A DNA stretch of 64,000 bases from an uncultured Mycoplasmatota bacterium. Its GTDB lineage: Bacteria; Bacillota_I; Bacilli_A; RF39; UBA660. A model generated the notes under the pieces. The model did no database searches, was not told where the DNA came from, and saw only the letters and a list, made by a program, of their open reading frames with translations. A program made the position numbers and the translations under genes. The DNA is taken from positions 18,969-82,968 of the forward strand of contig URNW01000004.1 in assembly GCA_900549285.1 (NCBI GenBank). The letters are read 5' to 3'. Below are positions 1 to 46,856 of this stretch, one piece after another. Positions within the stretch are counted from its first letter, which is position 1; each line of letters begins with the position of its first letter.

Positions 1-308
1 ATGATTAATTTTTTCTGTATTGGACTATCCGTATTGTTATATAAAATTTGTAGGTTTGATAAATATAATCCAATATCAACTGGACGATCAGCAATAATTA
101 ACCAAAATTCAAAACTAATAGAATTATAGAAATTTCTTAAATTACCAATTATAGCATTTTGTAAGCCTGGGTCTACTATAAATATGTTACGAGGATGTAC
201 TTTTATTCCTGTAACATATTCGCCACTTTCTAACTCTATCATTCCATTTAATATTTGTTTTATTGGTAACCAATCTTCGGTAAATGGAGAACTAGTTATC
301 TTCGCCAT
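1..308 (-). CDS. VirB4/TraE/TcpF-like T4SS ATPase, N-terminal fragment (gene continues past the left edge)
   Basis: Absent from the ORF track because it is open at the window edge. Minus-strand translation from ATG 308 gives MAKITSSPFTEDWLPIKQILNGMIELESGEYVTGIKVHPRNIFIVDPGLQNAIIGNLRNFYNSISFEFWLIIADRPVDIGLYLSNLQ. This fits the N-terminal pattern of Gram-positive VirB4-family ATPases. It overlaps the end of the PrgI-like ORF by 17 nt. Confidence 0.6.
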   Translation of the reverse strand, partial: MAKITSSPFTEDWLPIKQILNGMIELESGEYVTGIKVHPRNIFIVDPGLQNAIIGNLRNFYNSISFEFWLIIADRPVDIGLYLSNLQILYNNTDSPIQKKLI

Positions 309-600
309 TATGGCACCATCCTTTCCAATAATACTTTCTTCTATCACTAAAATAACTATAAATATTTACTATGAATTGTAAGACATTGTGATAATTTGGT
401 ACAGGCATTACAAGAAAGCCAGTTATTAACGCAGGTGCTAATACTAATAACATAATTCCCATATTAGCACTTTGGATTGTTAACAATAATATTAAAGTAA
501 TACCTACTCCCGAACCAAATAATATTAAGTCTATGGGAGTAAAAAAACCTAATATTAATTGAGATTTTTTAGAATTGGCAGGAATTAAATAATTATTCAC
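292..600 (-). CDS. PrgI/TcpE (VirB3-like) small membrane protein
   Basis: 102 aa. A short polar N-terminus is followed by two TM helices (LILGFFTPIDLILFGSGVGITLILLL and GIMLLVLAPALITGFLVM), then VLQFIVNIYSYFSDRRKYYWKG. This layout is typical of PrgI-family proteins, and the gene sits directly upstream of and overlaps the VirB4-like gene. Confidence 0.5.
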   Translation of the reverse strand: MNNYLIPANSKKSQLILGFFTPIDLILFGSGVGITLILLLTIQSANMGIMLLVLAPALITGFLVMPVPNYHNVLQFIVNIYSYFSDRRKYYWKGWCHNGEDN

Positions 601-664
601 ACTACTACCTCCTAATTTTACTTATTTATTATAACATATTTATTTTTAAAGGGATAGTGGTAAA

Positions 665-691
665 TAAAAAAGAAAGCAAAATTTTGCTCTC
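665..691 (-). terminator. intrinsic terminator after the Rpn-like gene
   Basis: Minus strand reads GAGAGCAAAATTTTGCTTTC, an 8-bp stem with a 4-nt loop, followed by a T run. Confidence 0.55.
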
Positions 692-693
692 TA

Positions 694-1500
694 TCAATTT
701 AAATTTTCTAATTCTTTAATGCTTAATCCTGTTGCTTTACTGATATCTTCTATTGCGATATTTAATTGAAGTAGGTTTTTAGCAGTTTTCATTTTTTCTT
801 CTTCTCTTGCATTTCTTTCTACATCATTAATTTTATCATATACATTTTTTATTTCTTCATCTGCTAGAAACTCTTCCATAAATTGTAATGCCCTTTCCAT
901 TACTTCATCTTCTTTGGCTTCTTCTCTCATTTCTTCTATCTCCTTCCCATTTATTATTTTTAACCATTTGATAAATCTTTTCTCTTCTTCATTATATACC
1001 TTTTCCTTGACTAAATCAAGCCGAATTAAGTACATCTCTAAACATTCATCTTTGATTACTCCATAATTTAATTTATTTACAAATCCATAATTATTAACCA
1101 AATAAAAATTATTATAGTGATAATTTCCTTTCATAAAATTTAACCCAATAGTCTTATGTATTTCTCTATACTTTTCTCCTCTTTCTAATTGACTTGAAAA
1201 TATTCTTGTTAAATATGATACACTTTTATTAAATTCTTCTTTTTGAAATTCTTTATACATCTCAATTGAAATAATCTTTCCTGTATTAGTATAAGCAAGA
1301 ATATCGCCGTAAAAAATCTTATTCTTATATTTTTTACCAAACATTTCTTTTTCTGTACTTGTTTTTAAGCCTCTAATTCTTTCCTCTTTTCCTATATATT
1401 CAAAAAATGAATTTAAGAAATCTTTTAATATTTCTTCTTTACTGAAAATATATTTAAAACATATATCATCAGTTAGTGTAACATTTATCTTAGTATTCAT
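694..1500 (-). CDS. PD-(D/E)XK nuclease family, Rpn-type recombination-promoting nuclease / putative transposase
   Basis: 268 aa. N-terminal LTDDICFKYIFSKEEILKDFLNSF, then YGDILAY...IISIEMYK (D...E.K core), an acidic coiled coil, and a C-terminal AKNLLQLNIAIEDISKATGLSIKELENL HTH-like tail. This is the usual PDDEXK_2/Rpn layout. Confidence 0.7.
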   Translation of the reverse strand: MNTKINVTLTDDICFKYIFSKEEILKDFLNSFFEYIGKEERIRGLKTSTEKEMFGKKYKNKIFYGDILAYTNTGKIISIEMYKEFQKEEFNKSVSYLTRIFSSQLERGEKYREIHKTIGLNFMKGNYHYNNFYLVNNYGFVNKLNYGVIKDECLEMYLIRLDLVKEKVYNEEEKRFIKWLKIINGKEIEEMREEAKEDEVMERALQFMEEFLADEEIKNVYDKINDVERNAREEEKMKTAKNLLQLNIAIEDISKATGLSIKELENLN

Positions 1501-1583
1501 AACAATTCCTCCCTTCCCTAAGAATAAATGTTATCTTATCATACTTCCTTGTCTTATTTTGTCAAACCGTGGAATTACAATTG

Positions 1584-1611
1584 AAAAAAGAAAGCTTATT
1601 TTTCACTTTCT
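1584..1611 (-). terminator. intrinsic terminator after the 188-aa gene
   Basis: Minus-strand stem AGAAAG/CTTTCT with an 11-nt loop, followed by a T run, 20 nt after the stop codon. Confidence 0.45.
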
Positions 1612-1630
1612 TATTTTTTTTGATTTCAAT

Positions 1631-2197
1631 TCATCTTTTTAAACTATCAATCGCTAGACGAGTATTAATTTCAGCTGTTCTTATTTCAATGTTGTCTTTT
1701 AGTACTTTTATTTTTTCACCAGCATTTGAATTTCCAAAGTTATCAATTTTGGAAATACCCGTTCTTTGAATAGCAAGTAAATGAGCATATTCTCTTAGCA
1801 AATTGTTGATAATCTGAATACAACTATGAATATAAGTTAAATAGACATTATCTGTTTCAGTAACTGCAAGAGCAATTATTCTGTTTTTTAATTGTTTTAA
1901 CTTTTCATAATATATTCTGGTTAGTTCTGCACTTTGATAGGCTCTTTCTTCTATTGGTAAACTCTTACTTTTTAATAAAGATTCGCTTATTATTTTTAAT
2001 AAATTAATTGGCATTTTTTCGCCATTATATTCTATTAACAATCTTGTATCTTCGCTTGCAAATTCAGCAATATATTCTTCTAATTTACTATCTATTAATG
2101 AGAACTGATCCTGAAATTTTTGATATGCATTTAATTCTTTTTTGTCATCATTTATACTACTATGTGCCCAATTTTTTAATTTATTCAATCTAAACAT
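1631..2197 (-). CDS. hypothetical coiled-coil protein of the T4SS-like cluster
   Basis: 188 aa with no TM segment, predicted helical. Its start overlaps the stop of the VirB6-like gene (TAATG), which indicates translational coupling. Confidence 0.5.
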   Translation of the reverse strand: MFRLNKLKNWAHSSINDDKKELNAYQKFQDQFSLIDSKLEEYIAEFASEDTRLLIEYNGEKMPINLLKIISESLLKSKSLPIEERAYQSAELTRIYYEKLKQLKNRIIALAVTETDNVYLTYIHSCIQIINNLLREYAHLLAIQRTGISKIDNFGNSNAGEKIKVLKDNIEIRTAEINTRLAIDSLKR

Positions 2198-4368
2198 TAT
2201 TTTTTATCTTTTCCTCCAGAACTAGCTTTTCTTCTCTCTTGTTCCATTTTAATATTTTCTTGAATTTTAGAAGATTGGCTTTCTAAGTAGTCAGAAAGTT
2301 TAGATACATTATCGGTTGTTAAATTTCCATTATATTTTTCTTTAATTTCTGGATCATTTTTAAAGCTCTGAACACTATCTAAGGCTTGATTAGCTACAAA
2401 TTTTTTCTGTACAATTTCATAAGCTGATTCTGTTTGATCTAGTGCAACCATTGCTTCATTTAAAATTCCCTTAGAGGCAGCAGATGAAAATTGAGCGTCA
2501 AATTCAGCAGCTTTAGAACGGTCTATTGATACTGCTGCTAAACCTTTTCCTATTGCTTTTATTTTTTGATTCATTTTACTTTCTAATGCTGCAGCAACTT
2601 TAGCATCTTCCACATCTCCAGAGCTTTTTAAAGTTTGAATCATTGCATCCAATTCACTTAAAGTGGTAGCTTGAGTTATTATAGCACGTGGCACTATTTT
2701 CTTTTCCATTATTGCTTTTCCATTTTCATCTTTTCGTCCGCTATCAACTTCTATTTCTTTTTCACCCAATGCATCATTTTCGCCATATTTAAATAAATAC
2801 TTTTTGTCTCTTACGAAACCTTCTGATGTTGATTTAACCGCTTTGGCATCTTTCACAAACTCATTTACTTGTTCTAGCATTTTTTGCTGTGCTTCAAAAC
2901 TTCCACTAGCCCATCCAATTGCATCATTCTTTTTATTATCAACCCATTGTGAGAGGTAGTTGCCCCAGCCACCTGCTGCTTCTCTCTTAGCGCGAGCTCC
3001 TAATGCGTTTGATGCTGCTGTTCCAGCAGCTTTTGGAATATCTCCAAATTTTTCGGTTTTTGCTCCTTGTCTTAATCCTCTAGCTCCTCCAGATAATCCA
3101 GCTAAAGCACCTCTTCCTAATCTGCGTGCCATTGGTTTATCTTTATCATTTACTACACTTCTAATAGCTGCAGTGGCTCCTCCGCCAAACATTGATGCCA
3201 TAGCACCTATTCCTTTTATTAAAGACTTACCGTATTTTCCACTATCAAGTCCTGTAATATCTTTTAATATTTGGGGTGCTTGTTTTACAAATAATATTAT
3301 ACCAATAATAATAAATACTTGTGCAAATAGATATACTGTAAAACTTGCATTGCCACTTATAAAACCGCCTCCAATTAACAATGTTGGCAAATTTTGAACT
3401 ACTAATTTTATTAATAAAATTGCAAAAAATAGAATGGCTAATCTAATAAAAACTTCCACATAAGTCGATAATGTTGCTTTAATCCAATTATTAAAAACCT
3501 TGTTTCCCTGTTCTCCTGGTATTATTCTTGATAAAATTGGCAATGGTGCAATCAACTGATAAACAGCTAATTTTACAGTTCGTATAGCTACATCAATACA
3601 ATATACCAATAAAACAAAGAATGTAAATGCCCCTGCAACTGTAGATATAATGAAATAGTAAGTTACATTTGACTCATGTGAGATACTATATGCAAAAGAT
3701 GATATACTTAAAAAATTGCCAGTTTCTAAGACTGATTCCCAAATACTGTCAAAATTATTATATCCCCCATTAACATTAACAAAGAAAGATACAACTGATA
3801 TCCATCCAATCGTGTTTTTGGTTGCTATTTCCACATTTGAGCAATCATATGTATAATCATTATTTTGTGTACAAAGATTATAATTTGGGTGTAAAAAAGC
3901 TTGCAAAAGATTTGCTGCAATTGTTATTCCTCCATCTTCTATTGTTTCTTCAGAAGTTTCACCAGTCTTATTAGAAGAAGTTCCCAATATAACTTTCCCT
4001 ATAGTATTTTCTGTCAAAATAGCAGTTTGAAATCTTGTAGCAAAAGAAAATATAGTAGGTACTAGTGCTATTAAAACAATTGATATAATTATATCTTTAA
4101 TAATATTTACTGGACCTTTTTTATTTTTTAAGGCATCATCTGGATTTACCATAGATTTCAAAAGAGAATATGCTACTAAAAAGAGTACTATTACTCCAAT
4201 TATGACATATATTCTATTAACTAAAGCATCAATCTCATAAGAATTATCCAAAATATCTATTTGGCATATCACTAAAATGATTTGATAAACCCAACTTATT
4301 AAAGAATAGATGATTCCATCTAAAAACAGTAAAATTCCTATAAAAAAGTTTGATATATTTTCTATCAT
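2197..4368 (-). CDS. polytopic membrane protein, VirB6/TrbL/TcpH-like, with long Gly/Ala/Lys-rich cytoplasmic tail
   Basis: 723 aa. About 7-8 hydrophobic helices lie in the first ~390 aa, including a large loop. The tail starts GGGATAAIRS...GRGALAGLSGGARGLRQGAK...AAGTAASNALGARAKREAAGGWG and continues as coiled coil. Size and layout resemble the VirB6-type channel proteins of Gram-positive conjugation systems. Confidence 0.45.
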   Translation of the reverse strand: MIENISNFFIGILLFLDGIIYSLISWVYQIILVICQIDILDNSYEIDALVNRIYVIIGVIVLFLVAYSLLKSMVNPDDALKNKKGPVNIIKDIIISIVLIALVPTIFSFATRFQTAILTENTIGKVILGTSSNKTGETSEETIEDGGITIAANLLQAFLHPNYNLCTQNNDYTYDCSNVEIATKNTIGWISVVSFFVNVNGGYNNFDSIWESVLETGNFLSISSFAYSISHESNVTYYFIISTVAGAFTFFVLLVYCIDVAIRTVKLAVYQLIAPLPILSRIIPGEQGNKVFNNWIKATLSTYVEVFIRLAILFFAILLIKLVVQNLPTLLIGGGFISGNASFTVYLFAQVFIIIGIILFVKQAPQILKDITGLDSGKYGKSLIKGIGAMASMFGGGATAAIRSVVNDKDKPMARRLGRGALAGLSGGARGLRQGAKTEKFGDIPKAAGTAASNALGARAKREAAGGWGNYLSQWVDNKKNDAIGWASGSFEAQQKMLEQVNEFVKDAKAVKSTSEGFVRDKKYLFKYGENDALGEKEIEVDSGRKDENGKAIMEKKIVPRAIITQATTLSELDAMIQTLKSSGDVEDAKVAAALESKMNQKIKAIGKGLAAVSIDRSKAAEFDAQFSSAASKGILNEAMVALDQTESAYEIVQKKFVANQALDSVQSFKNDPEIKEKYNGNLTTDNVSKLSDYLESQSSKIQENIKMEQERRKASSGGKDKK

Positions 4369-4393
4369 ATTACATCACCTCTAATCTTATACA

Positions 4394-5551
4394 TTAAACA
4401 TTTGTTCCTAAGCCACATGTTGCATCTGTACTTACAATACCTAATAAGTCAAAAATAAAATTAATTAAATTTGGTAAGAAAAATATTATAACCGCTATAA
4501 TTAAACGCTTAATCATATTCTGAGTTGCCTTTTTTATTGCATCATCTTTATTGGAAGCTACAGCTTTAGCAAAATCTATAATTGTTAAAACCAACAATAT
4601 TACTATTGCAGCGTATTTTAAGAACTGAAAGGCAAAATTTAAATAATATGCTGGATCATTTGAATCATGAATATAACCCAAATAACTATTGCATGAATTT
4701 AAATCTCCAAATTCTAAATTATTTTTAAATTCAACATAGGATGCTTCTAGATCTTCTTTGGTATAGCCCTGATCTTCCGCTTGATCAACTAATTGATTCT
4801 GCTCTAATTTAATTTTATTACACTCTTCGGCATTATAATCCTTTGATTCTTCATTACAATATTTTTCCATTTTATCAGTTGCTTCATTATATTGGTCTTG
4901 AACGTTGCTAGGCTTATTGTCAGTCACATCAACGTTATTGATTAAGGTCCCAGTATAATATTCTAGAGTATATAATTTTCCTGCCGTTCCGTCGTGATTA
5001 ACAGTGTTCCTTTTTGCAAATAATAAATCATATGTTGCTTGACAAGTGTCTACATTATAATCACCATAGTTATTTCCACAAGCATATAAGTCATATGTTG
5101 TTTCTACTTTTTTATTTATAAAACCCGTTTCAACAGTGTACTCCATAATATATATTTTTGATGGACATATTAATGCTTTATCCTCACTTGTTACTACTTC
5201 ATCTTCTTTTTGCATGATTATGGCTTCTGTCCAATATAAATATGGCGATTCCATTCCAGCAATAGGAGTATTCCAATTTACATAATGATCTATTGAATCA
5301 TATTCATAAGAAAAAATTTCTTTTTGAGTATTGTCATTATATAAAGAAAAATAATCAATGTCGCCTAAAGATGGTATCCCCGTTCCAAGTCCAATATAAT
5401 CAACTGCTAAGTAATTTCGCCAGCTTGAGTCACCCGTAGAATGGGAAACAGTGTCTTGATAAATACAGCTTCTTGTAGCCATTTCTGCTGCTTGTACATT
5501 AATGGTTCCAATAGAAAATAATATTATAAAGAGGATCAAATATTTCCTCAT
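4394..5551 (-). CDS. secreted Cys-containing protein with C-terminal pilin-like (VirB2/TrbC-type) two-helix hairpin
   Basis: 385 aa. Signal peptide MRKYLILFIILFSIGTINVQA, a ~280-aa ectodomain with 7 Cys, then FLKYAAIVILLVLTIIDFAKAVASNKDDAIKKATQNMIKRLIIAVIIFFLPNLINFIFDLLG. The C-terminal module is paralogous to that of 5553-6398. Confidence 0.5.
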   Translation of the reverse strand: MRKYLILFIILFSIGTINVQAAEMATRSCIYQDTVSHSTGDSSWRNYLAVDYIGLGTGIPSLGDIDYFSLYNDNTQKEIFSYEYDSIDHYVNWNTPIAGMESPYLYWTEAIIMQKEDEVVTSEDKALICPSKIYIMEYTVETGFINKKVETTYDLYACGNNYGDYNVDTCQATYDLLFAKRNTVNHDGTAGKLYTLEYYTGTLINNVDVTDNKPSNVQDQYNEATDKMEKYCNEESKDYNAEECNKIKLEQNQLVDQAEDQGYTKEDLEASYVEFKNNLEFGDLNSCNSYLGYIHDSNDPAYYLNFAFQFLKYAAIVILLVLTIIDFAKAVASNKDDAIKKATQNMIKRLIIAVIIFFLPNLINFIFDLLGIVSTDATCGLGTNV

Positions 5552-5552
5552 T

Positions 5553-6398
5553 CTAATCCACCAACTTTCTACATGAATCGTCTGTTGGTTCTAACATACA
5601 ATGAGTACATCTAGCAAACGTTCCATTGTTTTTATTATAGATATCATCTCCGCCTATTAAATCTACAACAAAATTTAATAAAGTGGGAATAAAGAAAATA
5701 ATAATTCCTGCTATTATACGCATTACCAAAGTTTTAGCAGATTTTTTTATTTCATCATCTTTATTTGCTAACATTGCTTTACCAAAGTCAATACTTCCAA
5801 AAACTATTAGTATAATTGGAATTAATATTTTTAAAAAATAAAATATCCAGCCTAAAGTTGTAAATACTCCCTCTACTGGTCCACTACAAAAAGTATTTGC
5901 ATCAAATTCTGTTTCATCTTCTGTATTAGTAGGAGTAGATCCTGTTCCTGTTCCACTTGAGCTTTTTAAGCTAAAGGGAGTACATCCTTTATAAAGATAT
6001 GCTCCTGAAATTTCATTTAATGTTGAGCAAATACTATCATCTGCTATTCCATAAACATCTACTTGTGGATATCCTACCATCATAGCTATTTTAATAGATT
6101 TTACTTGATTACAATCTACTTTACCATCTGAATCTAAAAAATCTTGATACTTCAATTTGCTTATATTCTCTTCACTTGCATTAGAAACTGTTCCATTCTT
6201 ATATGTTTTATAACTTACTTGAGTAGCATCTTTAAATCCACATTTTAAATCATCTGTGATACTACATTCATATGTAAATGTTTTTTGACTACCACTTACA
6301 GACATAGTTGTACTGTAGGTACATACTTCTGCTGAGACCGCTTTTAAAGATATAAAACTTATTATAAAGACAAATAACAAATACTTTAAGCTCCTCAT
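5553..6398 (-). CDS. secreted Cys-rich protein with C-terminal pilin-like (VirB2/TrbC-type) two-helix hairpin
   Basis: 281 aa. Signal peptide MRSLKYLLFVFIISFISLKAVSA, an ectodomain with 7 Cys, and a Ser/Gly/Thr linker. Then FLKILIPIILIVFGSIDFGKAMLANKDDEIKKSAKTLVMRIIAGIIIFFIPTLLNFVVDLIGG and a tail with 3 further Cys. Confidence 0.5.
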   Translation of the reverse strand: MRSLKYLLFVFIISFISLKAVSAEVCTYSTTMSVSGSQKTFTYECSITDDLKCGFKDATQVSYKTYKNGTVSNASEENISKLKYQDFLDSDGKVDCNQVKSIKIAMMVGYPQVDVYGIADDSICSTLNEISGAYLYKGCTPFSLKSSSGTGTGSTPTNTEDETEFDANTFCSGPVEGVFTTLGWIFYFLKILIPIILIVFGSIDFGKAMLANKDDEIKKSAKTLVMRIIAGIIIFFIPTLLNFVVDLIGGDDIYNKNNGTFARCTHCMLEPTDDSCRKLVD

Positions 6399-6540: not shown

Positions 6541-7914
6541 ATGAAAAAGAAAATTAAAGAATATCAAACAATTCATTTAATTGGTATAGGTGGAGCTAGT
6601 ATGTATGCAATTGCTGCTATGCTTAAAAATGATGGCAAACATGTTACTGGTAGTGATATGCAAGAATCAGAGCATACTAAATATTTAGAAAGTATTGGTA
6701 TTTCCATTACTATTGGACATAATATTGATGTTATTAAAAATGCCGATTTAGTGATTTATACAGCAGCAATTAGTGATGATGATCCTGAGCTTAGTTATGC
6801 AAGAGCAAATCATATTGAAACTGTTGATCGTTCTATTTTTTTAGGAGAATATACGAAAAATTATGAAAATTTAATTTGTATTAGTGGAACTCATGGTAAA
6901 AGTACTACTACTAGTATGCTTGCATCTATTTTTTTAGAAGCTAATTATAATCCAACTATTCATATTGGGGCTTCTTTAAAAAAAATAAAGGGAAATTATT
7001 ATATTGGTAATAAAAAATATTTTATTTTGGAAGCATGTGAATATGTAGATTCTTTTCTTCATTTTCATCCTACAAGTGAAATTATTTTAAATATTGATAA
7101 TGATCATCTTGATTATTTTAAAAATATAGAAAATATAAAAAAATCCTTTCAAAAATATATTAATTTATTACCAAAGAATGGCTTTTTAGTCATAAATAAT
7201 GATGATATTAACATAAAGGATTTAGATATTCATCATAAAAATGTTTTAACTTATGGAATTCAAAATCATGCTAATATCATGGCTAAAAATATTCAATATT
7301 CTAGTTTAGGATTCCCTACTTTTGATGTTTATTACAATGATGAATACTACGATACAATTACTTTAAATGTTCTTGGAAAGCATAATATTATGAATGCCTT
7401 AGCAGTTATCTTAATGAGTATGAATTATCAAATTGATAAAAGCATTATTAAAAAAGCTTTAAAAGAATTTACTGGTGTGGGTAGAAGATTTGAGTATCTT
7501 GGTGAATATAAAAAAGCTCATTTCTTTGATGACTTTGCTCACCATCCAACAGAAATTGCTTCCACATATGAATCTAGTAAAGCGATTAAGCATCATCAAT
7601 CTTGGGCAGTTTTTCAATCTCATACTTATAGTAGAACTTATGAACATTTACAAGAATTTGCAGATATATTAAGTAAATTTGATCATATTATTATTTGCGA
7701 TATTTACCCTGCACGTGAAAAAAATATTTGGAATGTAAAAGAAGAAGATTTGGTTAATTTAATTAAAGAAAAGAATACCCATGTTATACATATTCCTACT
7801 TATGAACAAATTACTCAGTACTTAAAAGAAAATATAGAACCTGATGATTTAGTTATTACAGTTGGAGCTGGTCCTATTAATCAAGTTGCTCAAATGATTT
7901 TAAATAAAAATTAG
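6541..7914 (+). CDS. murC: UDP-N-acetylmuramate--L-alanine ligase
   Basis: 457 aa. Motifs IHLIGIGGASMYAIAAML, ISGTHGKSTTTSM and DDFAHHPTE match the MurC pattern. An SD (GAGGTGA) precedes the ATG. Confidence 0.93.
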   Translation: MKKKIKEYQTIHLIGIGGASMYAIAAMLKNDGKHVTGSDMQESEHTKYLESIGISITIGHNIDVIKNADLVIYTAAISDDDPELSYARANHIETVDRSIFLGEYTKNYENLICISGTHGKSTTTSMLASIFLEANYNPTIHIGASLKKIKGNYYIGNKKYFILEACEYVDSFLHFHPTSEIILNIDNDHLDYFKNIENIKKSFQKYINLLPKNGFLVINNDDINIKDLDIHHKNVLTYGIQNHANIMAKNIQYSSLGFPTFDVYYNDEYYDTITLNVLGKHNIMNALAVILMSMNYQIDKSIIKKALKEFTGVGRRFEYLGEYKKAHFFDDFAHHPTEIASTYESSKAIKHHQSWAVFQSHTYSRTYEHLQEFADILSKFDHIIICDIYPAREKNIWNVKEEDLVNLIKEKNTHVIHIPTYEQITQYLKENIEPDDLVITVGAGPINQVAQMILNKN

Positions 7915-14228: not shown

Positions 14229-15536
14229 TTAAAATTTCCTTCTTATTCTTGGATGTCCGCATGGACTTGGGCACTTATAATCTGGATACATACATCTTAG
14301 CTTATTAATGTATGGCTTTAATCTTTCCGCTAATTCTGTTTTTCCTTCTTTTAAAAGTCCTTCATAAATATCTGGTAACATTACATTTGTAAACATATCT
14401 TCTGTTTCTAAAAATGCTCTATCGCATGCTCTTTCTTTCCCCACATAATTTACTAAATGTTTTAACGGACCATTAGCATTTACTTTAACTATTTTACCTT
14501 GAGGATAAAATTTATTAACTTTTAAAATATCGTTCAACCATTCCTTCGTTAAGTCTTCTTTTCCACTTAATAAAAGTGGTATATAGAATTTTTCTTCTTC
14601 TAAAGATGGGGTAGACATTTCATAATTGATAGTTCTATGACGGTGAAATTGGGCAAGGCTAGCTAAAGATATTTCCATATTATAACTAAATGCTACTCCG
14701 TATTCATTTGGCATACCTATTCCTGAAAATCTATTCCGTTCAGCAAATAAAGATAAATCTATTTCTTTATTATTTTTATATAATAAATCTTCACTTTCAT
14801 TTCTAGCTAATTTAGGACATAAATCATAGACATCTTTTTCTGTTAATAAAACATCAATATCTTTTAATCCTTGAATGAATTCTTTTAAATATGGTATTAA
14901 TAATTTTTCAAAATCATTTTGTGGACTCTCTATAATTCTTTGCATATATAAGCATAGCTTATTTATTTGAGCAAAAGGTACCGTGTAAGTTAATGTTGTT
15001 GGCATAAATACACTAACCATGTATCTAGCATTTTCTTGAGCTATCTTTTTTATTGCACTTGCTGCTTTCTTATTTGTTTTTTCTTCCGTATCTCCTTTGT
15101 TAAATTTCTTAAAAAAGTCTAGATATTCATGATTTAATATTTTAATAAAAATATTTAACCACTTATCATATAATTCTACTTCTAAATCACTAATATATTC
15201 ATTTGGTTTTACTTCTGTATATCTAAGTGATCTTTCATCAGCAGCATATTGATGTTCGTTGTTAAGAATCATACATAAAATTTTAGGAATTCCAACAATT
15301 TCTAATGATACCTGTGGTTGTTCACTTGGCGAAGTATGATCACTTATAATTGTATTTATTCCTCTTTCAATTATACGCTCTTCTGTTTCTGTTTCGCGTA
15401 TCATCACTGGTGTTATTTCGCCTTCTTTAAAACATACTGCTGCTTTAATTCCAGCATCATATAGTGCTTTCTTTTTATCAAATCTCTTTTTATTCTTTGT
15501 CAAAAATCCAGAGTTTGGATCTAATGTGATTTTCAA
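14229..15536 (-). CDS. tandem-domain ThyX-like (flavin-dependent thymidylate synthase family) protein
   Basis: 435 aa. The N half has DHTSPSEQ...ILNNEHQYAADERSLRYT and ENARYMVSVFMPT, ThyX-like but with RHR replaced by NNE. The C half has SLAQFHRHRTINYEMS, with RHR present but S.RY missing. Confidence 0.5.
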   Translation of the reverse strand: MKITLDPNSGFLTKNKKRFDKKKALYDAGIKAAVCFKEGEITPVMIRETETEERIIERGINTIISDHTSPSEQPQVSLEIVGIPKILCMILNNEHQYAADERSLRYTEVKPNEYISDLEVELYDKWLNIFIKILNHEYLDFFKKFNKGDTEEKTNKKAASAIKKIAQENARYMVSVFMPTTLTYTVPFAQINKLCLYMQRIIESPQNDFEKLLIPYLKEFIQGLKDIDVLLTEKDVYDLCPKLARNESEDLLYKNNKEIDLSLFAERNRFSGIGMPNEYGVAFSYNMEISLASLAQFHRHRTINYEMSTPSLEEEKFYIPLLLSGKEDLTKEWLNDILKVNKFYPQGKIVKVNANGPLKHLVNYVGKERACDRAFLETEDMFTNVMLPDIYEGLLKEGKTELAERLKPYINKLRCMYPDYKCPSPCGHPRIRRKF

Positions 15537-22242: not shown

Positions 22243-24471
22243 ATGGCAAAGAAGAAAAAAACAAAAAATAGTGAAGCAGAAAAAATTGGATTTAGTGCTG
22301 AACTTACTGGTCTTATATTAATATTAATTGGTATTATTGGTTTTGGATTTGGACCTGTTGGATCTATTATTAAGAAATTTGCAATGTTTTTGGTTGGAGG
22401 ATGGGCTTGGATTTTTTTATTAATCTTTATTCTTGTTTTAGGAATTTACATGTTAGTAAAAAGAAATTTACCCAAATTTTTAAATCAAAAATTAGTCGGA
22501 TTATATGTAATTATTATTGTTGTTTTAGTAGCTAGTCATTTTGGATTTATTGCCAAATGTGATGGAGCTAGTGATATTTTTAAATCTACAATTGATCAGT
22601 ATATGGAAAGAATTTCAACCATTGGATCAAATACCGCTTTATTTACTAGTGGAGATGCTTCCATTGAAATTGGAGGAGGAATCATTGGAGCTATATTTTC
22701 TATTGGTCTTAGTAGTTTATTTGGTCTTACAGGTACTAAGATTGTTTGTGTTATTTTAGCTCTATTTGGTTTTATTTTATTTTTCAATATTACTCTTGTT
22801 GATATTCTTCAAAAGATTAAGTCATTCTTTAGCAAATTTAAAAATTCTATGCCTAAAGAGAAACCTATTAAAGAAGCAGAATATCAATATGAAGAAGATC
22901 AAGAATTTGAAGAAAAGAAAAACGATAAAATTATTATTACAAGCATGGAAGAATTAAAAACCATGAAAGAACCGCAAAAAGAAAATTTAGATACGAATAA
23001 AGAAACAATATATGAAGCTAACAGTAATTATGTACTTCCTCCTCTTTCTTTATTAGATAATATTAGTCAACCTAAAAAGAATCCTGCTTCTAATAATTAT
23101 ATAAGGAGTAATAAAGAGAATTTAGAAAGAGTGTTAAAAGATTTCCAAATCAATGGTACTGTAGTTGAAATTCATATTGGTCCTGCAGTTACACAATTTG
23201 AAGTAAAAGTTCCAAGTGGTACTAAAGTTAGTCGAATTGTTGGTATTAATAAAGAAATAGCCTTAGCATTAGCAGCAAAAGATGTTAGAATTCAAGCGCC
23301 TATTCCAGGAAAAAGCACCATTGGAATAGAAATACCTAATCCAAGTATTAGTGCTGTTAAATTTAAAGAAGTTCTTGCTCATGAGTCAAAAGCTATGAGT
23401 GATGCTAAAATTGTTGTGGCTTTAGGAAAAGATATTATGGGTAGACCTCAACTTGCTGATTTATCTAAAATGCCCCATCTTTTAATCGCAGGTTCTACTG
23501 GTTCTGGTAAATCTGTTTGTACGAATACTATGATTTGTTCTATTTTAATGCGTTACAAACCTGATGAAGTAAAATTAATGCTTGTGGATCCTAAAAAGGT
23601 AGAATTATCAAATTATAATGGTGTTCCTCACCTTCTTTGTCCAGTAGTTAGTGATCCTAAAAAAGCTAGTATTGCTTTACAAAAGTTAGTAGCAGAAATG
23701 GATAAACGTTATGATATGTTTAGTGATGCTAATGTTAAGAATATAGCTGGATATAATGATTGGATTACAAAAGAAAATAAAAATAATGGTACTAATGTAG
23801 CTAAAATGCCATATATTGTTGCTATTATTGATGAACTTGCTGATTTAATGTTAGTTGCTTCTAAAGAAGTAGAAGATTCTATTATGCGAATTACTCAAAT
23901 GGCACGTGCTGCTGGAATTCATTTAATTGTTGCTACACAAAGACCTTCTACTGATGTTATTACTGGAGTTGTTAAAGCAAATATCCCTTCTCGTATTGCC
24001 TTTGCTGTTGCTTCTAATATTGATTCAAGAACTATTCTTGATATGAGTGGTGCTGAAAAGTTACTTGGTAAAGGTGATATGTTATATCTTCCTATGGGTG
24101 AAAATGTACCTATTCGTATTCAAGGTTGCTTTATTACAGATGATGAAATTAAAAGAATTATTGATTATGTATGTAAAGAACAAGTTGCTCATTATAGTGA
24201 AGATATGCAAAATTTAGATGCTACAGGTAATGGAATTCATGGACTTCCTAATGAAACTGAGGAATATGATGATCCTTTATATAATGAAATTGTAGAATTT
24301 GCAATTCAGACTGGTAAAGTAAGTACTAGTTTGTTACAGCGAAGATTTAGATTAGGATATAATCGAGCAGCCAGAGTGGTAGATTTGCTTGAGGAACGCG
24401 GTATTGTTGGCCCTCCTAATGGATCTAAACCAAGAGAAGTTTTAGTTAAATTAGATGACAAATCAGAATAA
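22243..24471 (+). CDS. ftsK: DNA translocase FtsK/SpoIIIE
   Basis: 742 aa. N-terminal TM helices, GSTGSGKSV, IIDELADLM, and a C-terminal gamma winged helix (LLQRRFRLGYNRAARVVDLLEERGIV). Confidence 0.95.
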   Translation: MAKKKKTKNSEAEKIGFSAELTGLILILIGIIGFGFGPVGSIIKKFAMFLVGGWAWIFLLIFILVLGIYMLVKRNLPKFLNQKLVGLYVIIIVVLVASHFGFIAKCDGASDIFKSTIDQYMERISTIGSNTALFTSGDASIEIGGGIIGAIFSIGLSSLFGLTGTKIVCVILALFGFILFFNITLVDILQKIKSFFSKFKNSMPKEKPIKEAEYQYEEDQEFEEKKNDKIIITSMEELKTMKEPQKENLDTNKETIYEANSNYVLPPLSLLDNISQPKKNPASNNYIRSNKENLERVLKDFQINGTVVEIHIGPAVTQFEVKVPSGTKVSRIVGINKEIALALAAKDVRIQAPIPGKSTIGIEIPNPSISAVKFKEVLAHESKAMSDAKIVVALGKDIMGRPQLADLSKMPHLLIAGSTGSGKSVCTNTMICSILMRYKPDEVKLMLVDPKKVELSNYNGVPHLLCPVVSDPKKASIALQKLVAEMDKRYDMFSDANVKNIAGYNDWITKENKNNGTNVAKMPYIVAIIDELADLMLVASKEVEDSIMRITQMARAAGIHLIVATQRPSTDVITGVVKANIPSRIAFAVASNIDSRTILDMSGAEKLLGKGDMLYLPMGENVPIRIQGCFITDDEIKRIIDYVCKEQVAHYSEDMQNLDATGNGIHGLPNETEEYDDPLYNEIVEFAIQTGKVSTSLLQRRFRLGYNRAARVVDLLEERGIVGPPNGSKPREVLVKLDDKSE

Positions 24472-32192: not shown

Positions 32193-32837
32193 TTATACTT
32201 TGTGGTAAGATAGTTTAATAATATAATATAATTTTAAAATTTCTTCATTAAAAGATCCGTTTATATCTTTTAAGATACTTTCATATATATATTCCATGTT
32301 ATCTACATTTTCTTTTTTATATTCATAATACAAATACTTTAATTTAGCTATTTCTTTTTCTTGATATAAATGATTGATTTCTAATAAAATTAATTTTTTA
32401 GCTTCACTTATTTGTCTTAGAGTATTATCTATTTGTAATTTCTCTATTATCTCATATTTTATATCAGTATCTTTCATTCCATAAATAATTTCTAAAACAT
32501 TTAATTCATCTTCTATTAATAATTTACTTCTATTCATGGTTAGTCCTTCTTTATTAAATTCTAGCGCTATTACATTTTTAGTATCTGTAAACAAGCAGGC
32601 ATATTCTATCCTTTTTATATTCTTTTTATCACTTACTAAGGTTTTATCATGAATACTATCTAAAAAATCTGATGATACTTTTATTTTATTACTAATTAAA
32701 TCGATAAAAGTTTTATGTTTTAACTTAATTAAAGGAATTTTTTTTAATAACTCTAGATTATCATAATCATTCCACTCATAAAAATCATATGCTTTATTTT
32801 CGCCCCAATTTAAAATTATGTCGTAATAATAATTCAT
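32193..32837 (-). CDS. YqhG-like (DUF3603-type) protein
   Basis: 214 aa. YYYDIILNWGENKAYDFYEWNDYDNLELLKKIPLIKL and CLFTDTKNVIALEF...NRSKLLIEDE match the YqhG pattern as I remember it. Confidence 0.45.
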   Translation of the reverse strand: MNYYYDIILNWGENKAYDFYEWNDYDNLELLKKIPLIKLKHKTFIDLISNKIKVSSDFLDSIHDKTLVSDKKNIKRIEYACLFTDTKNVIALEFNKEGLTMNRSKLLIEDELNVLEIIYGMKDTDIKYEIIEKLQIDNTLRQISEAKKLILLEINHLYQEKEIAKLKYLYYEYKKENVDNMEYIYESILKDINGSFNEEILKLYYIIKLSYHKV

Positions 32838-33036
32838 TCTTGATCCACCTTTCTAACGATATTCCTATTAAAGCAATTCCTATTACAAATAGCCACACTT
32901 CTACTCTTCTACTTATAAATTGAACAAATTCTATGAAACTATACCCAATTGTTAATAAATTAAGATAAATTATAATAAAAAATAGGCCAATACTAGTAAA
33001 TATGACACCAATTATGTAAAGTAATAATCGAAACAT
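32794..33036 (-). CDS. small membrane protein
   Basis: 80 aa with two or three TM helices. It overlaps the next gene by 44 nt. Confidence 0.4.
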   Translation of the reverse strand: MFRLLLYIIGVIFTSIGLFFIIIYLNLLTIGYSFIEFVQFISRRVEVWLFVIGIALIGISLERWIKNELLLRHNFKLGRK

Positions 33037-33093
33037 AGTAACTCCCCTATAATTTTATTTCTTAAATAAAAAAAATATTATATAATTAAATAG

Positions 33094-33915
33094 GTGATAA
33101 AATTGAACTATTTAATTTATATTATTTTAGGGATTATTCAGGGATTTACTGAACCGATTCCCGTATCTTCTAGTGGGCATATTTTTCTTTTTAAAAATAT
33201 TTTTAATACAGATATGTTTAATGATTTAAATTTTGAAATTGTGGCTAATTTTGGATCTTTTCTAGCTATTTTATTTATATTTAGAAAAGAAGTATGGGAA
33301 CTTTTAACAGCTTTTTTCTCTTATATTTTTAAGAAAGAGACAAGAGAAAAATATAAAAAGAAATTTAGGTACTGTATATATATTATTATTTCTACTATTC
33401 CAATTGGACTTGCTGGATTTTTATTTAAAGATTTTATTGAAGAAAAATTACAAAATATTACTATTTTAGGTTTTGCTTTCTTAATTACAGCTTTTATGCT
33501 TCTATTAGTTAAAAATAAAAATGGGAAAAAAGATGATGATGATATCACTTTAAAAGACGCTCTCATTATTGGTATATTACAAATTATAGCATTATTTCCT
33601 GGTATTAGTAGAAGTGGTACTACTTTAGTTCTTTGTTTACTGGTTGGTATGAGTAAAAATACAGCTTTAAAATATACTTTTATTTTATATTTTCCTATTA
33701 GTTTAGGAACTATGATTTTGGGAGTTAAAGATATTATGGAAGCTGGAAATTTAAGTAGCGTTGCTCTACCTTATTTTAGTGGATTATTAGCAGCATTAGT
33801 AGTTACATATTTTTCTTATCGCTGGCTTAGTAATGTTGTAAAGCGTGGTAATCTTTGGAAATTTAGCATTTATTGTGTATGTTTAGCCATATTTATCTTT
33901 ATTTATTTTAGATAA
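33094..33915 (+). CDS. uppP: undecaprenyl-diphosphate phosphatase
   Basis: 273 aa. QGFTEPIPVSSSGH and PGISRSGTT. Confidence 0.92.
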   Translation: MIKLNYLIYIILGIIQGFTEPIPVSSSGHIFLFKNIFNTDMFNDLNFEIVANFGSFLAILFIFRKEVWELLTAFFSYIFKKETREKYKKKFRYCIYIIISTIPIGLAGFLFKDFIEEKLQNITILGFAFLITAFMLLLVKNKNGKKDDDDITLKDALIIGILQIIALFPGISRSGTTLVLCLLVGMSKNTALKYTFILYFPISLGTMILGVKDIMEAGNLSSVALPYFSGLLAALVVTYFSYRWLSNVVKRGNLWKFSIYCVCLAIFIFIYFR

Positions 33916-34005
33916 AAAGCTTCACTTTATAGTGGAGCTTTTATCTTGTAAGCAAAATGATTTCATTTAAAAATTAGTTTGGCGTATAAAAAAGTGGTGA
34001 ACCAC

Positions 34006-34551
34006 TTAATTTTTAAATAATATAATATTAAATACTAATAAGACTGCTACATTAAAGGCATAACTAAATTGAAAACGTTCACATTCACCTATAGAAACGA
34101 TTAAGTCTGATGCACAAATTATCCATCCTTCTTTACTTTTGGGTTTAAATTCTTTAATACTTGCTTTTTCTTTTGGATTTATAAATGGGAAAATCTTTTT
34201 TATTAAAACATGATGGAACATATGAGTCTTAATGGCTTCTGCCTCTAATTCTGTTACATTAAAATATCTTTTGGCATTGCTAGCTGCTGTAACTGGATGT
34301 CTTAAATATGAATTTTCTGGGCTTTCTTTTCTAGTTCCGTAAAAGAAGTCATGCAAAAGTCCCGCTCTAGACACACTTTTTAAATCTGCTTTAAAATATC
34401 TTCCTAAACGATAACTTAATTTGGCTACTCTTAAAGAGTGCTCGTATTTACTTGTACCATGATGTAAATCTTTTTTTGTTTCTAAAAAATGTTCATTATT
34501 TAATATATCACACACATACTCATCAAACTCGCATTTTAAACGTTTTGTCAT
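34006..34551 (-). CDS. HD-domain phosphohydrolase
   Basis: 181 aa. HSLRVAKLS...AGLLHDFFY. Confidence 0.7.
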   Translation of the reverse strand: MTKRLKCEFDEYVCDILNNEHFLETKKDLHHGTSKYEHSLRVAKLSYRLGRYFKADLKSVSRAGLLHDFFYGTRKESPENSYLRHPVTAASNAKRYFNVTELEAEAIKTHMFHHVLIKKIFPFINPKEKASIKEFKPKSKEGWIICASDLIVSIGECERFQFSYAFNVAVLLVFNIILFKN

Positions 34552-42864: not shown

Positions 42865-42941
42865 GGGCGCTTAGCTCAGTTGGTTAGAGCACCTGCCTTA
42901 CAAGCAGGGGGTCATAGGTTCGAGTCCTATAGCGCCCACCA
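42865..42941 (+). tRNA. tRNA-Val (anticodon TAC), CCA encoded
   Basis: Cloverleaf readable by eye. Acceptor GGGCGCT/AGCGCCC, anticodon loop CTTACAA, T-loop GGTTCGAGTCC. Confidence 0.9.
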
Positions 42942-42953
42942 TTTTATTTTTTT

Positions 42954-43029
42954 GCCGACATAGCGTAACTGGCAGCGCAACTGACTTGTAATCAGTAGGT
43001 TGGGGGTTCGACTCCCTCTGTCGGCACCA
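42954..43029 (+). tRNA. tRNA-Thr (anticodon TGT), CCA encoded
   Basis: Acceptor GCCGACA/TGTCGGC. The anticodon arm ACTGA-CTTGTAA-TCAGT matches Bacillus tRNA-Thr(UGU). Confidence 0.9.
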
Positions 43030-43038
43030 TTAAATTAT

Positions 43039-43122
43039 GGGGAGATAGCGAAGTGGTCAAACGCGGCAGACTGTAAATCTGTTCCTTCGGGTTCCATGGT
43101 TCAAATCCATGTCTCCCCACCA
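43039..43122 (+). tRNA. tRNA-Tyr (anticodon GTA), long variable arm, CCA encoded
   Basis: Acceptor GGGGAGA/TCTCCCC, anticodon loop CTGTAAA, variable arm TCCTTCGGG. Confidence 0.9.
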
Positions 43123-43131
43123 CTTAATTAT

Positions 43132-43207
43132 TGCCTCGTAGCCAAGTGGTAAGGCATCAGACTTTGACTCTGACATTCCGCTGGTTCGAACCCAGCCGAG
43201 GCAGCCA
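43132..43207 (+). tRNA. tRNA-Gln (anticodon TTG), CCA encoded
   Basis: Acceptor TGCCTCG/CGAGGCA, anticodon loop CTTTGAC. Confidence 0.9.
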
Positions 43208-43212
43208 TACTT

Positions 43213-43288
43213 GGTTCGCTAGCTCAGTAGGTAGAGCATTTGACTTTTAATCAAAGGGTCCCGGGTTCGAATCCCGGGCGAGCCACCA
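43213..43288 (+). tRNA. tRNA-Lys (anticodon TTT), CCA encoded
   Basis: Acceptor GGTTCGC/GCGAGCC, anticodon loop CTTTTAA. Confidence 0.9.
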
Positions 43289-46615: not shown

Positions 46616-46856
46616 TTTTTTCACCCATTTTTTCTTCAATTACCTTATCAATCATATCATACTCAGCACTAGATAAATCATTATTAATAATATATTTATC
46701 ATCTACTATTTCATAGGAAGATGCAAGTAAATCATCATCTACTAAATACACAATATAATTTTTGCTAAAATAATAATCAAAATGAGTAAACAAAAAGGTT
46801 GCTTTTATTTTATTTCCTTCTATATCTTCTAAAATCATTTTATTCATAGTTATCAC
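46608..46856 (-). CDS. DUF1292-like small acidic protein
   Basis: 82 aa. LEDIEGNKIKATFLFTHFD...YIVYLVDDD...AEYDMIDKVIEE. Confidence 0.5.
   Translation of the reverse strand: MITMNKMILEDIEGNKIKATFLFTHFDYYFSKNYIVYLVDDDLLASSYEIVDDKYIINNDLSSAEYDMIDKVIEEKMGEKNE

Follow-up and report, generated by a model that had tools for sequence, protein, structure and literature searches.

The 64,000-nucleotide (nt) stretch of DNA analyzed here (the window) carries at its left end a minus-strand gene cluster for an apparatus resembling a type IV secretion system (T4SS). We consider this, with a probability of about 0.72, to be a resident, chromosomal, and vertically inherited apparatus of the bacterial order RF39 that was repurposed beyond ordinary conjugation. 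RF39 bacteria, which are uncultured and have reduced genomes, are widespread in the gut microbiomes of humans and animals; we found no literature linking them with VirB4 or a T4SS. By its sequence, the source species is close to Mycoplasma sp. CAG:776, which among the 80 best-matching genomes was the closest (VirB4 ATPase 98% identical). The genus CAG-776 is placed in order RF39, family UBA660 (PMC13155120).

The apparatus genes

Beyond position 1 of the window (to the "left"), the sequence was followed in overlapping metagenome contigs, six of which matched the window at 99.9 to 100% identity over the aligned cluster region and reached further left. Labels such as L001, L002, and L003 denote public assembly stretches compared with the window. 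From right to left, murC and the cluster genes are as follows (ORF, open reading frame; TM, transmembrane):

6541-7914, plus strand: murC (TIGR01082, 437 bits), 142 bp from the first cluster gene
5553-6398, minus strand: pil281, a secreted surface protein of 281 aa (ORF; PF18895 T4SS_pilin, E 6.4e-5, below the cutoff)
4394-5551, minus strand: pil385, a paralogous secreted protein of 385 aa (ORF; hairpin weakly matching Mbov_0396 and MMCAP2_0566)
2197-4368, minus strand: B6, a VirB6-like polytopic membrane protein of 723 aa (NF045848 MMCAP2_0566, pLS20_p028, Foldseek TrwI/VirB6)
1631-2197, minus strand: cc188, a small helical soluble protein of 188 aa (ORF; shares base 2197 with B6)
694-1500, minus strand: rpn, an Rpn-family PD-(D/E)XK nuclease or putative transposase of 268 aa (PF12784, TIGR01784)
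292-600, minus strand: B3, a VirB3/TcpE/PrgI-like protein of 102 aa with two TM helices (TcpE, E 1e-3; PrgI, E 0.12)
1-308, minus strand: B4N, the first 102 codons of a 183-aa VirB4 N-domain protein, TrsD/TraC-like (PF26593, NF045975)
Just left of the window and wholly outside it, after B4N: B4C, a VirB4 ATPase of 595 aa (TAATG overlap with B4N)

B4C matched best the family NF045975 (VirB4_plasma; 354 bits, E 1e-105), followed by CD1110 (173 bits), and it aligned with the VirB4 C-domain structure 4ag5 of the PDB (E 2.5e-56). Its Walker A (GTSGSGKST) and Walker B (MMVDEAH) motifs are intact, as in the VirB4-family ATPases of monoderm T4SSs. The match to CedD reached only E 2.5e-11, lower than those to several conjugative VirB4 families. 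B4N, the gene of which overlaps that of B3 by 17 nt and extends 246 bp beyond the window, matched the TraC-like family PF26593 and positions 104 to 276 of NF045975 (E 2.7e-13). B3 in turn aligned with positions 2 to 96 of NF045975 (E 0.003), which models a fused mycoplasma VirB3-VirB4 protein, and the three proteins together tile this 894-position model (2-96, 104-276, and 294-891). The equivalog defined by NF045975 is a single fused protein scoring at least 590 bits; here, we found three ORFs, the best piece scoring 354 bits. B4N was a separate ORF at all 14 loci with ORFs listed and a separate, adjacent tblastn match in 80 of 80 genomes. The position of B3 beside virB4, its size, and its topology fit VirB3/PrgI/TcpE. 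The protein has an invariant N-terminal IPANSKKS motif, and its orthologues matched TcpE in 12 of 14 cases (best 1e-5) and PrgI in 8 of 14, all under the Pfam gathering scores.

B6 starts with a pilin-like hairpin and further has an extracellular loop in which two Cys residues are invariant, a Gly/Ala-rich segment, and a well-folded C-terminal domain of 225 aa; it also matches PF18895 weakly. Among 44 homologues, 22 matched MMCAP2_0566 (best 7e-15), 22 matched pLS20_p028 (best 2.5e-8), and 11 matched Mbov_0396. None of the 120 homologues listed out of 283 had a precomputed Pfam domain, and a sequence search of the family against the PDB returned coiled-coil noise only. Foldseek analysis of the AlphaFold2 model (predicted local distance difference test [pLDDT] score, 79) gave the R388 TrwI/VirB6 chains as the only meaningful PDB matches, with probabilities of 0.85 to 0.96 and TM-scores of 0.44 to 0.48, but E values of only 0.2 to 0.8. 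The family and structural matches identify B6 as the VirB6-like polytopic channel protein found in monoderm T4SSs. An ATGA-type overlap couples it translationally to cc188, for which Pfam and NCBIfam yielded no family match. Positional orthologues of cc188 (172 to 277 aa) occur in both clades described below; their place is conserved, and their sequence evolves fast.

Both Pil proteins have signal-peptide-like N termini (…KAVSA/EV in Pil281 and …NVQA/AE in Pil385) and, near the C terminus, two hydrophobic helices with a KDDxIKK loop between them. In Pil281, the ectodomain behind the signal peptide is rich in beta structure and contains Cys; a low-complexity linker connects it to the VirB2-type two-helix membrane hairpin, and the protein ends in a CxxC…C tail. 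In the AlphaFold2 model (pLDDT, 81), a signal helix precedes the ectodomain, which is confidently modeled as beta-rich, and a disordered linker leads to a long hairpin of two helices. Pil385 carries the same C-terminal hairpin behind a different and larger ectodomain, and it aligns with Pil281 and its orthologues in the hairpin only. Indeed, in an alignment of 45 homologues, the ectodomain is variable and the hairpin nearly invariant (…GWVFFILKILIPIILIVFGSIDFGKA…KDDEIKKSAK…IAGIIIFFIPT…), followed by the CxxC…C tail. PF18895 was matched by 7 of 30 hairpin proteins, at best with 8e-6, which is below its threshold.

Direct hidden Markov model (HMM) matches of the apparatus proteins inside the window are weak, yet all point in one direction, to a T4SS, and the assignments became firmer when whole orthologue sets were scanned. 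In NCBIfam, every T4SS-like gene matches a family from the integrative and conjugative elements (ICEs) of mycoplasmas (VirB4_plasma/Mbov_0397, MMCAP2_0566, Mbov_0396, and the pilin-like Mbov_0395).

These results bear on an earlier note on this DNA, which had described the minus-strand ORFs as the edge of a T4SS-like cluster. All of those ORFs were found, and profile, structure, and synteny evidence upheld each assignment: the two secreted pilin-hairpin proteins, the VirB6/TrbL/TcpH-like polytopic protein with its translationally coupled 188-aa partner, the inserted nuclease, and the PrgI/VirB3-like protein. The profile-HMM searches that the note had proposed for its six proteins supported, for the two left-most ORFs, VirB4 and, below the thresholds, TcpE/PrgI. 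The likeness to mycoplasma ICEs that it mentioned agrees with the best-scoring family models, and its spacing of ~140 bp to murC and its similar AT-richness agree with the measured gap and with a GC content of 0.23 to 0.32 across the window, without a compositional break at the cluster. Two points had to be revised. The ORF at the window edge does overlap the PrgI-like gene and leave the window, as the note had it, but it is the 183-aa N-domain protein, the ATPase being separate. Likewise, the cluster does cross the left edge, but the window already holds six of the eight apparatus genes, and the cluster extends only ~2.3 kb further before it stops.

Distribution, descent, and mobility

A scan with the ATPase detected the B3-B4N-B4C module in at least 572 species-representative genomes; synteny (by tblastn) and clades were derived from the best 80, and VirD4 was counted only where the downstream flank was long enough (within 7 to 10 kb). 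These 80 are all gut metagenome-assembled genomes labelled Bacilli, Tenericutes, or Mycoplasmatota, and the module was present in 80 of 80 fetched loci. The gene order pilin-B6-B3-B4N-B4C is conserved among relatives. The exact 102-aa protein is present in 555 blocks of public assemblies; exact look-up of the 723-aa protein and of a ClpC-like protein gave none on record. Close ATPase homologues of 594 to 595 aa number in the thousands. At 50% clustering, the best full-length match was a single representative at 69% identity, followed by two at 44 to 46% (583 to 585 aa, also split); other full-length matches were at 35% or less, and several short fragments were at 60 to 84%. The nearest named outgroups, at ~30 to 33% identity, included Erysipelotrichales (Thomasclavelia, Coprobacillus, and Solobacterium), a Mycoplasmatota plasmid, and Desulfocucumis.

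To compare selection, nonsynonymous divergence (dN), synonymous difference (pS), and their ratio omega (dN/dS) were determined between the window species and 21 other genomes, virB4 and murC being compared within the same genome pairs. At synonymous sites, virB4 (pS 0.42 to 0.67) differed at least as much as murC (0.37 to 0.60) and dus. At the protein level, however, the ATPase changed 3 to 5 times more slowly than MurC (dN 0.014 to 0.063 versus 0.07 to 0.23). The approximate omega was 0.02 to 0.06 for virB4, 0.12 to 0.31 for murC, and 0.2 to 0.5 for the VirB6-like and hairpin genes (pil385, 0.2 to 0.43). In line with this, the ATPase of clade B (see below) is also more conserved than the neighboring rmuC and VirD4 products. 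We conclude that the ATPase is under stronger purifying selection than neighboring housekeeping genes and that the surface proteins diverge fast. The high pS of virB4 together with its slow protein change indicates vertical descent under strong constraint. Recent horizontal spread, considered as the cause of the 92 to 98% VirB4 identity, was rejected, since the synonymous divergence matches that of murC. Because the motor protein changes more slowly than MurC, the machine probably has an important role other than ordinary plasmid-style conjugation.

The 80 genomes fall into two clades. In clade A (29 species, the ATPases of which share 91% identity or more with that of the window), the gene set consists only of pilin-like genes, B6, the small gene, B3, B4N, and B4C. 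Downstream VirD4 was found at 0 of 13 loci, murC and dus lay upstream at 11 of 18, and B6 was not seen within 8.5 to 10 kb upstream at 7 of 18. Adjacency to murC, which the earlier note had suggested comparing among relatives, is specific to this one clade. The cluster of clade B (51 species; 80 to 87%) is larger. It begins with four small single-TM proteins and a conserved protein of 331 aa; between two and four hairpin proteins, B6, B3, B4N, and B4C come next, followed by a wall hydrolase (SpoIID plus CHAP, or M23 plus lysozyme), a protein of 233 to 291 aa, and VirD4. The latter was present at 27 of 30 loci (290 bits against a CD1115 cutoff of 250), and beyond it lie the conserved chromosomal genes rhodanese, rmuC, bacA, yuzI, and DUF3603. 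The window's clade has lost the hydrolase, the 233- to 291-aa protein, VirD4, and the extra small membrane proteins at this locus. The small proteins of clade B (L087 1939-4449; also L039, L045, L089, and others) share N termini such as MKEATGELNMTV… or MREAIGGSW… and continue with one TM helix, and the 331-aa protein is soluble and 64 to 71% identical among relatives. None of them has a family match; together, they may be an extra pseudopilin-like module that the window's clade lost.

At ~32193-34551, the window holds an HD-domain protein, BacA, and DUF3603, arranged as downstream of VirD4-rhodanese-RmuC in clade B and with no T4SS beside them. This suggests that the position of the clade A cluster beside murC is derived, and the segment, which lies ~28 kb away from where the cluster is now, has the look of a vacated ancestral T4SS site. 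In other relatives, the cluster is divided among core genes. In CANQBY010000002.1, ~9 kb with genes for a tRNA methyltransferase, spoIIP, murG, murB, ftsQ, and queH separates pil-B6-cc189 from B3-B4N-B4C. The trio of B3, B4N, and B4C in L011 (96% identical) has no other cluster genes beside it; its neighbors are a VCA0040-like gene and nusG, in a region that also holds gpr, spoIIP, ffh, and ftsA.

Signs of mobility were sought in the same regions. No relaxase, coupling protein, or integrase was found in the 64-kb window or in the 10 kb to its left, so that what the earlier note had stated for the window holds for the flank as well. Pfam and NCBIfam yielded no relaxase, integrase, or DDE recombinase domain in the window, the left flank, or clade B clusters, and inspection of the clade B clusters examined revealed no relaxase or integrase. 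A search for att-like repeats flanking the whole cluster returned only AT-rich chance matches and collagen-gene repeats. The cluster thus shows neither the recombinase and relaxase nor the att repeats and variable presence that characterize an ICE. The leftward extension that the note had proposed ends the cluster with the 595-aa ATPase, beyond which lie a collagen-like (BclA-like) gene on the opposite strand, the guanylate kinase gene gmk, a glycosyltransferase gene, and others. Of the two alternatives in the note, the end of an ICE is rejected and a long-resident, possibly repurposed apparatus is supported by this left flank, by the synteny in 80 species, and by dN/dS.

Two further components of monoderm T4SSs were missing at this locus. 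A coupling protein (VirD4/TcpA) was detected neither at the window locus nor at the 13 clade A loci, and the window's cluster has no VirB1-like peptidoglycan hydrolase, which the sister clade encodes right after virB4. The FtsK/SpoIIIE gene at 22243-24471 was rejected as a TcpA-type coupling protein, as its product has the four TM helices and the alpha and gamma domains of housekeeping FtsK. At 45377-46639, adjoining spoVS, the window encodes a 420-aa protein with a C-terminal SLT lytic transglycosylase domain (E 1.8e-5); this could possibly be a stand-in for the missing hydrolase, or simply a sporulation or cell wall enzyme.

Between B6 and B3, the cluster is interrupted by rpn, the product of which exceeds both curated cutoffs of the Rpn/PDDEXK_2 family (PF12784, 86.8 bits versus 27.4; TIGR01784, 70 versus 52.1). 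The gene has its own promoter-like site (1565-1538, 11 of 12 matches) and terminator-like hairpin (692-671). In the promoter scan, sites were no commoner than in shuffled sequence and are informative only where they bracket rpn. Most related genomes lack rpn, and CAG:776 retains a mere remnant; it is a species-specific insertion between the cluster halves and stands outside the apparatus. The natural strain L003, otherwise 99.9% identical, has a 1,417-bp deletion (window 810-2226; junction L003 9793-9807, with ~15 bp of microhomology) that removes the last B6 codons, all of cc188, and most of rpn. The relative L093 carries a RelB antitoxin gene in the same gap. The deletion and the RelB and Rpn insertions mark the B6-B3 gap as a tolerated insertion site and suggest that cc188 is not strictly required.

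Rpn-family genes recur around the T4SS locus. L093 (2837-4302, 11385-11624, and 14895-15636) has IS200-type (Y1_Tnp) and Rpn genes upstream of murC, the RelB gene in the B6-B3 gap, and Rpn C-terminal fragments after virB4. In the window, two 20-nt terminator-like sequences that are 85% identical (666-685 and 1584-1603; L001 9916-9935 and 8998-9017) lie directly after rpn and the 188-aa gene and so bracket the insertion; they may represent a duplicated terminator or target site.

Relation to known systems and proposed function

By sequence, the VirB4 pieces, the VirB6-like protein, and the hairpin proteins are closest to those of mycoplasma ICEs, namely, ICEA of M. agalactiae and the M. bovis ICE (CDS15/16/17; the pilin-like Mbov_0395, Mbov_0396/MMCAP2_0566, and Mbov_0397). 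The order hairpin, polytopic, VirB3/VirB4 is also shared, the ICE order being inferred from the consecutive numbers of the locus tags after which the families are named, and both host lineages are related to Mollicutes, within Bacilli. However, the scores lie far under the equivalog cutoffs (VirB4, 354 versus 590 bits), and the mycoplasma VirB3-VirB4 is one fused protein of ~894 positions, in contrast to the three ORFs of RF39. The RF39 locus also lacks the DDE transposase, VirD4 (CDS5), the CDS14-type lipoprotein, and mobility, and its host is walled and carries genes for sporulation. ICEA genes were stated to lack homologues outside Mollicutes (PMC6030558).

In architecture and biology, the RF39 cluster most resembles the T4SS of Patescibacteria, including Saccharibacteria (Southlakia epibionticum SEML1_0006-0019). 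The Patescibacteria system is chromosomal, relaxase-less, and derived from the MPF-FATA class (MPF, mating-pair formation), with TrsD beside virB4, PrgI, VirB6, and divergent PF18895 arrays (PMC12102498). The RF39 cluster shares the chromosomal location, the kinship with the monoderm (MPF-FATA) class, the lack of a relaxase, the TrsD-like N-domain gene beside virB4, the PrgI-like VirB3, VirB6, and the hairpin arrays, the last with PF18895 matches that stay sub-threshold (best 8e-6). Both hosts are genome-reduced and lack nucleotide synthesis. A peptidase/lysozyme gene comes directly after virB4 in Patescibacteria, an arrangement shared with the sister clade of RF39; in the window's clade, the locus is without a hydrolase. 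The two differ in phylum, RF39 belonging to Bacillota, and the hairpin proteins in the window bear large ectodomains. The Patescibacteria T4SS is essential for epibiotic growth of S. epibionticum (PMC12102498, PMC10633639, PMC12857230), and this Saccharibacteria system was the first T4SS shown to be essential (PMC12857230). Essentiality is known for S. epibionticum only; RF39 shows strong purifying selection. According to a 2025 review, VirB2-type subunits are otherwise unknown in Gram-positive T4SSs, except for Patescibacteria (PMC12857230).

The trs operons of the plasmids pGO1 and pSK41 also encode VirB4 in two parts, a TrsD-like N-domain protein and the TrsE-like ATPase, and the VirB3-like TrsC comes before them. 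The staphylococcal operon order is TrsC-TrsD-TrsE-…-TrsG-…-TrsK, and the RF39 sister clade has the same order of VirB3, N-domain, ATPase, hydrolase, …, VirD4. The trs systems differ in being plasmid-borne and conjugative with a relaxase, in lacking VirB2-like hairpin proteins, and in having the VirB6 analogue elsewhere in the operon. TrsD is homologous to the VirB4 N terminus (PMC12102498). The minimal set of the window's clade further resembles H. pylori ComB and archaeal Ced/Ted, each consisting of VirB2-like, VirB6-like, (VirB3), and VirB4-like components. These systems import DNA and have no coupling protein or relaxase. The likeness is a functional analogy only, with no specific sequence affinity, and ComB spans an outer membrane.

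In view of these comparisons, we rate the RF39 cluster as the Bacillota counterpart of the chromosomal, co-opted monoderm T4SS, further reduced by the absence of VirD4 and hydrolase. By analogy with the solved R388 T4SS, VirB3 would tether a two-polypeptide, hexameric VirB4 below the VirB6 channel. VirB4 would pull the hairpin proteins out of the membrane and so build a short surface stalk or fiber, the large, fast-evolving, disulfide-capable heads of which could contact another cell. Classical relaxase-led export is unlikely, since in the window's clade the surroundings of the locus contain neither a coupling protein nor a relaxase or dedicated hydrolase. More likely, the substrate is one that needs no coupling protein and would be moved either by import of DNA or other macromolecules, as by ComB and Ced, or by exchange upon cell contact, which has been proposed for the Patescibacteria T4SS that is essential. 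RF39 were reported to lack de novo nucleotide synthesis (PMC13155120), which makes a role in uptake or exchange attractive. A bolder version, which we hold to be unlikely, is that the apparatus is an almost essential cell-contact organelle of host-dependent or epibiotic life, homologous to the Patescibacteria T4SS down to the VirB2-like hairpin proteins (perhaps its monoderm source or sister) and, in the VirD4-less clade of the window, importing DNA, nucleotides, or other macromolecules for cells that cannot synthesize nucleotides de novo.

Several observations weigh against a repurposed T4SS as proposed here. VirD4, a relaxase, or a hydrolase may be encoded elsewhere in the clade A genome, as the search covered the surroundings of the locus. 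The VirB3-like and the pilin-like family matches all lie below curated cutoffs. The Pil281 ectodomain has no fold match in the PDB (Foldseek; best E 1.2), and the sequence profile of the hairpin retrieved from the PDB spurious matches to TM helices of G protein-coupled receptors and no solved pilin. The heads of 150 to 300 aa are unlike classical small pilins, which makes a polymerized pilus uncertain. The absence of cc188 from a natural strain shows that at least one of the genes is dispensable. Finally, synonymous sites are near saturation (pS ~0.5 to 0.7), which renders omega approximate; the dN ranking within the same genome pairs is robust.

Of the other explanations, protein export or surface display survives best, although we regard it as unlikely. 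Here, VirB4, VirB3, and VirB6 would do no more than insert, extract, and display the variable hairpin-anchored ectodomain proteins as adhesins, or export a protein cargo, with no nucleic acid involved. VirD4-less T4SSs that export proteins exist, namely, Ptl and Brucella VirB (PMC12102498), and Wang et al. propose export or another role for the Saccharibacteria system. Furthermore, adhesins under pressure to diversify would be expected to look like these ectodomains, which depend on Sec, are rich in Cys, evolve fast, and are paralogous; yet the ectodomain analyzed has no recognizable adhesin fold, and the cluster holds no candidate cargo or effector gene. This explanation also overlaps with a repurposed T4SS, and sequence alone cannot separate the two.

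It is rather improbable that the apparatus is still a conjugation pore, with coupling protein, relaxase, and hydrolase acting in trans from elsewhere in the chromosome and mediating chromosomal or distributive DNA transfer from one RF39 cell to another in a manner comparable to the chromosomal transfer of mycoplasmas. Conjugation proteins of mycoplasma ICEs do provide the nearest family models, VirD4 lies next to the cluster in 27 of 30 sister-clade genomes, and the SLT-domain protein (45377-46639) is encoded elsewhere in the window. In other systems, genes for type IV coupling proteins often lie far from virB4 (PMC12102498). However, VirD4 is absent from all 13 clade A loci within 7 to 10 kb and from the 64-kb window plus 10 kb to the left, and a relaxase is unseen even in full clade B clusters. 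That VirD4 and the hydrolase were lost along with four to five other genes suggests a changed function rather than relocation.

That the cluster is a decaying remnant, or the end, of an integrated conjugative element kept beside murC by chance has a very small probability and is close to refuted: VirD4 and the hydrolase are missing, the cluster contains the Rpn insertion and a 1.4-kb deletion polymorphism, and one relative has IS200, RelB, and Rpn fragments close to the locus, but six near-identical strains and 80 species have every apparatus ORF intact, the omega of VirB4 (0.02 to 0.06, with synonymous sites saturated) is lower than that of murC, neither an integrase nor an att site nor a compositional break was found, and core-gene synteny is kept across species.

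If the proposed repurposing holds, RF39 would provide a second, independent case of a vertically inherited, relaxase-less chromosomal T4SS with VirB2-like arrays, order-wide and in Bacillota, and would tie the "orphan" mycoplasma ICE machinery to a chromosomal relative. The natural series of full set, set minus VirD4 and hydrolase, and split loci would reveal which parts are kept once conjugation is given up. It would also offer a concrete handle on contact dependence in RF39, with surface proteins for labelling and an ATPase for inhibition.

Other genes in and around the window

The remainder of the window consists of housekeeping genes throughout, including a cluster of five tRNA genes on the plus strand (42865-43285). 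A 435-aa protein (14229-15536) has ThyX (Thy1) as its sole Pfam match, at residues 32 to 187, the other ~250 residues being unassigned; a ThyX-domain protein is noteworthy in a lineage reported to lack de novo nucleotide synthesis. Sporulation genes found in RF39 comprised gpr, spoIIP, spoVS, and a SpoIID-domain hydrolase gene (L011 2965-4747, L094 5958-6869, and L087 11852-13867), in accordance with reports that some RF39 keep sporulation and a thin wall. Directly after the VirB4 ATPase, collagen-like genes with GPT repeats and a BclA_C-type domain are present in L001 (12959-13732 and 14626-15506) and L002 (12959-13894). Their length differs among strains (257 versus 311 aa), one L001 copy is split into 112 and 141 aa, and the encoded proteins look like exosporium or adhesin-type surface proteins.

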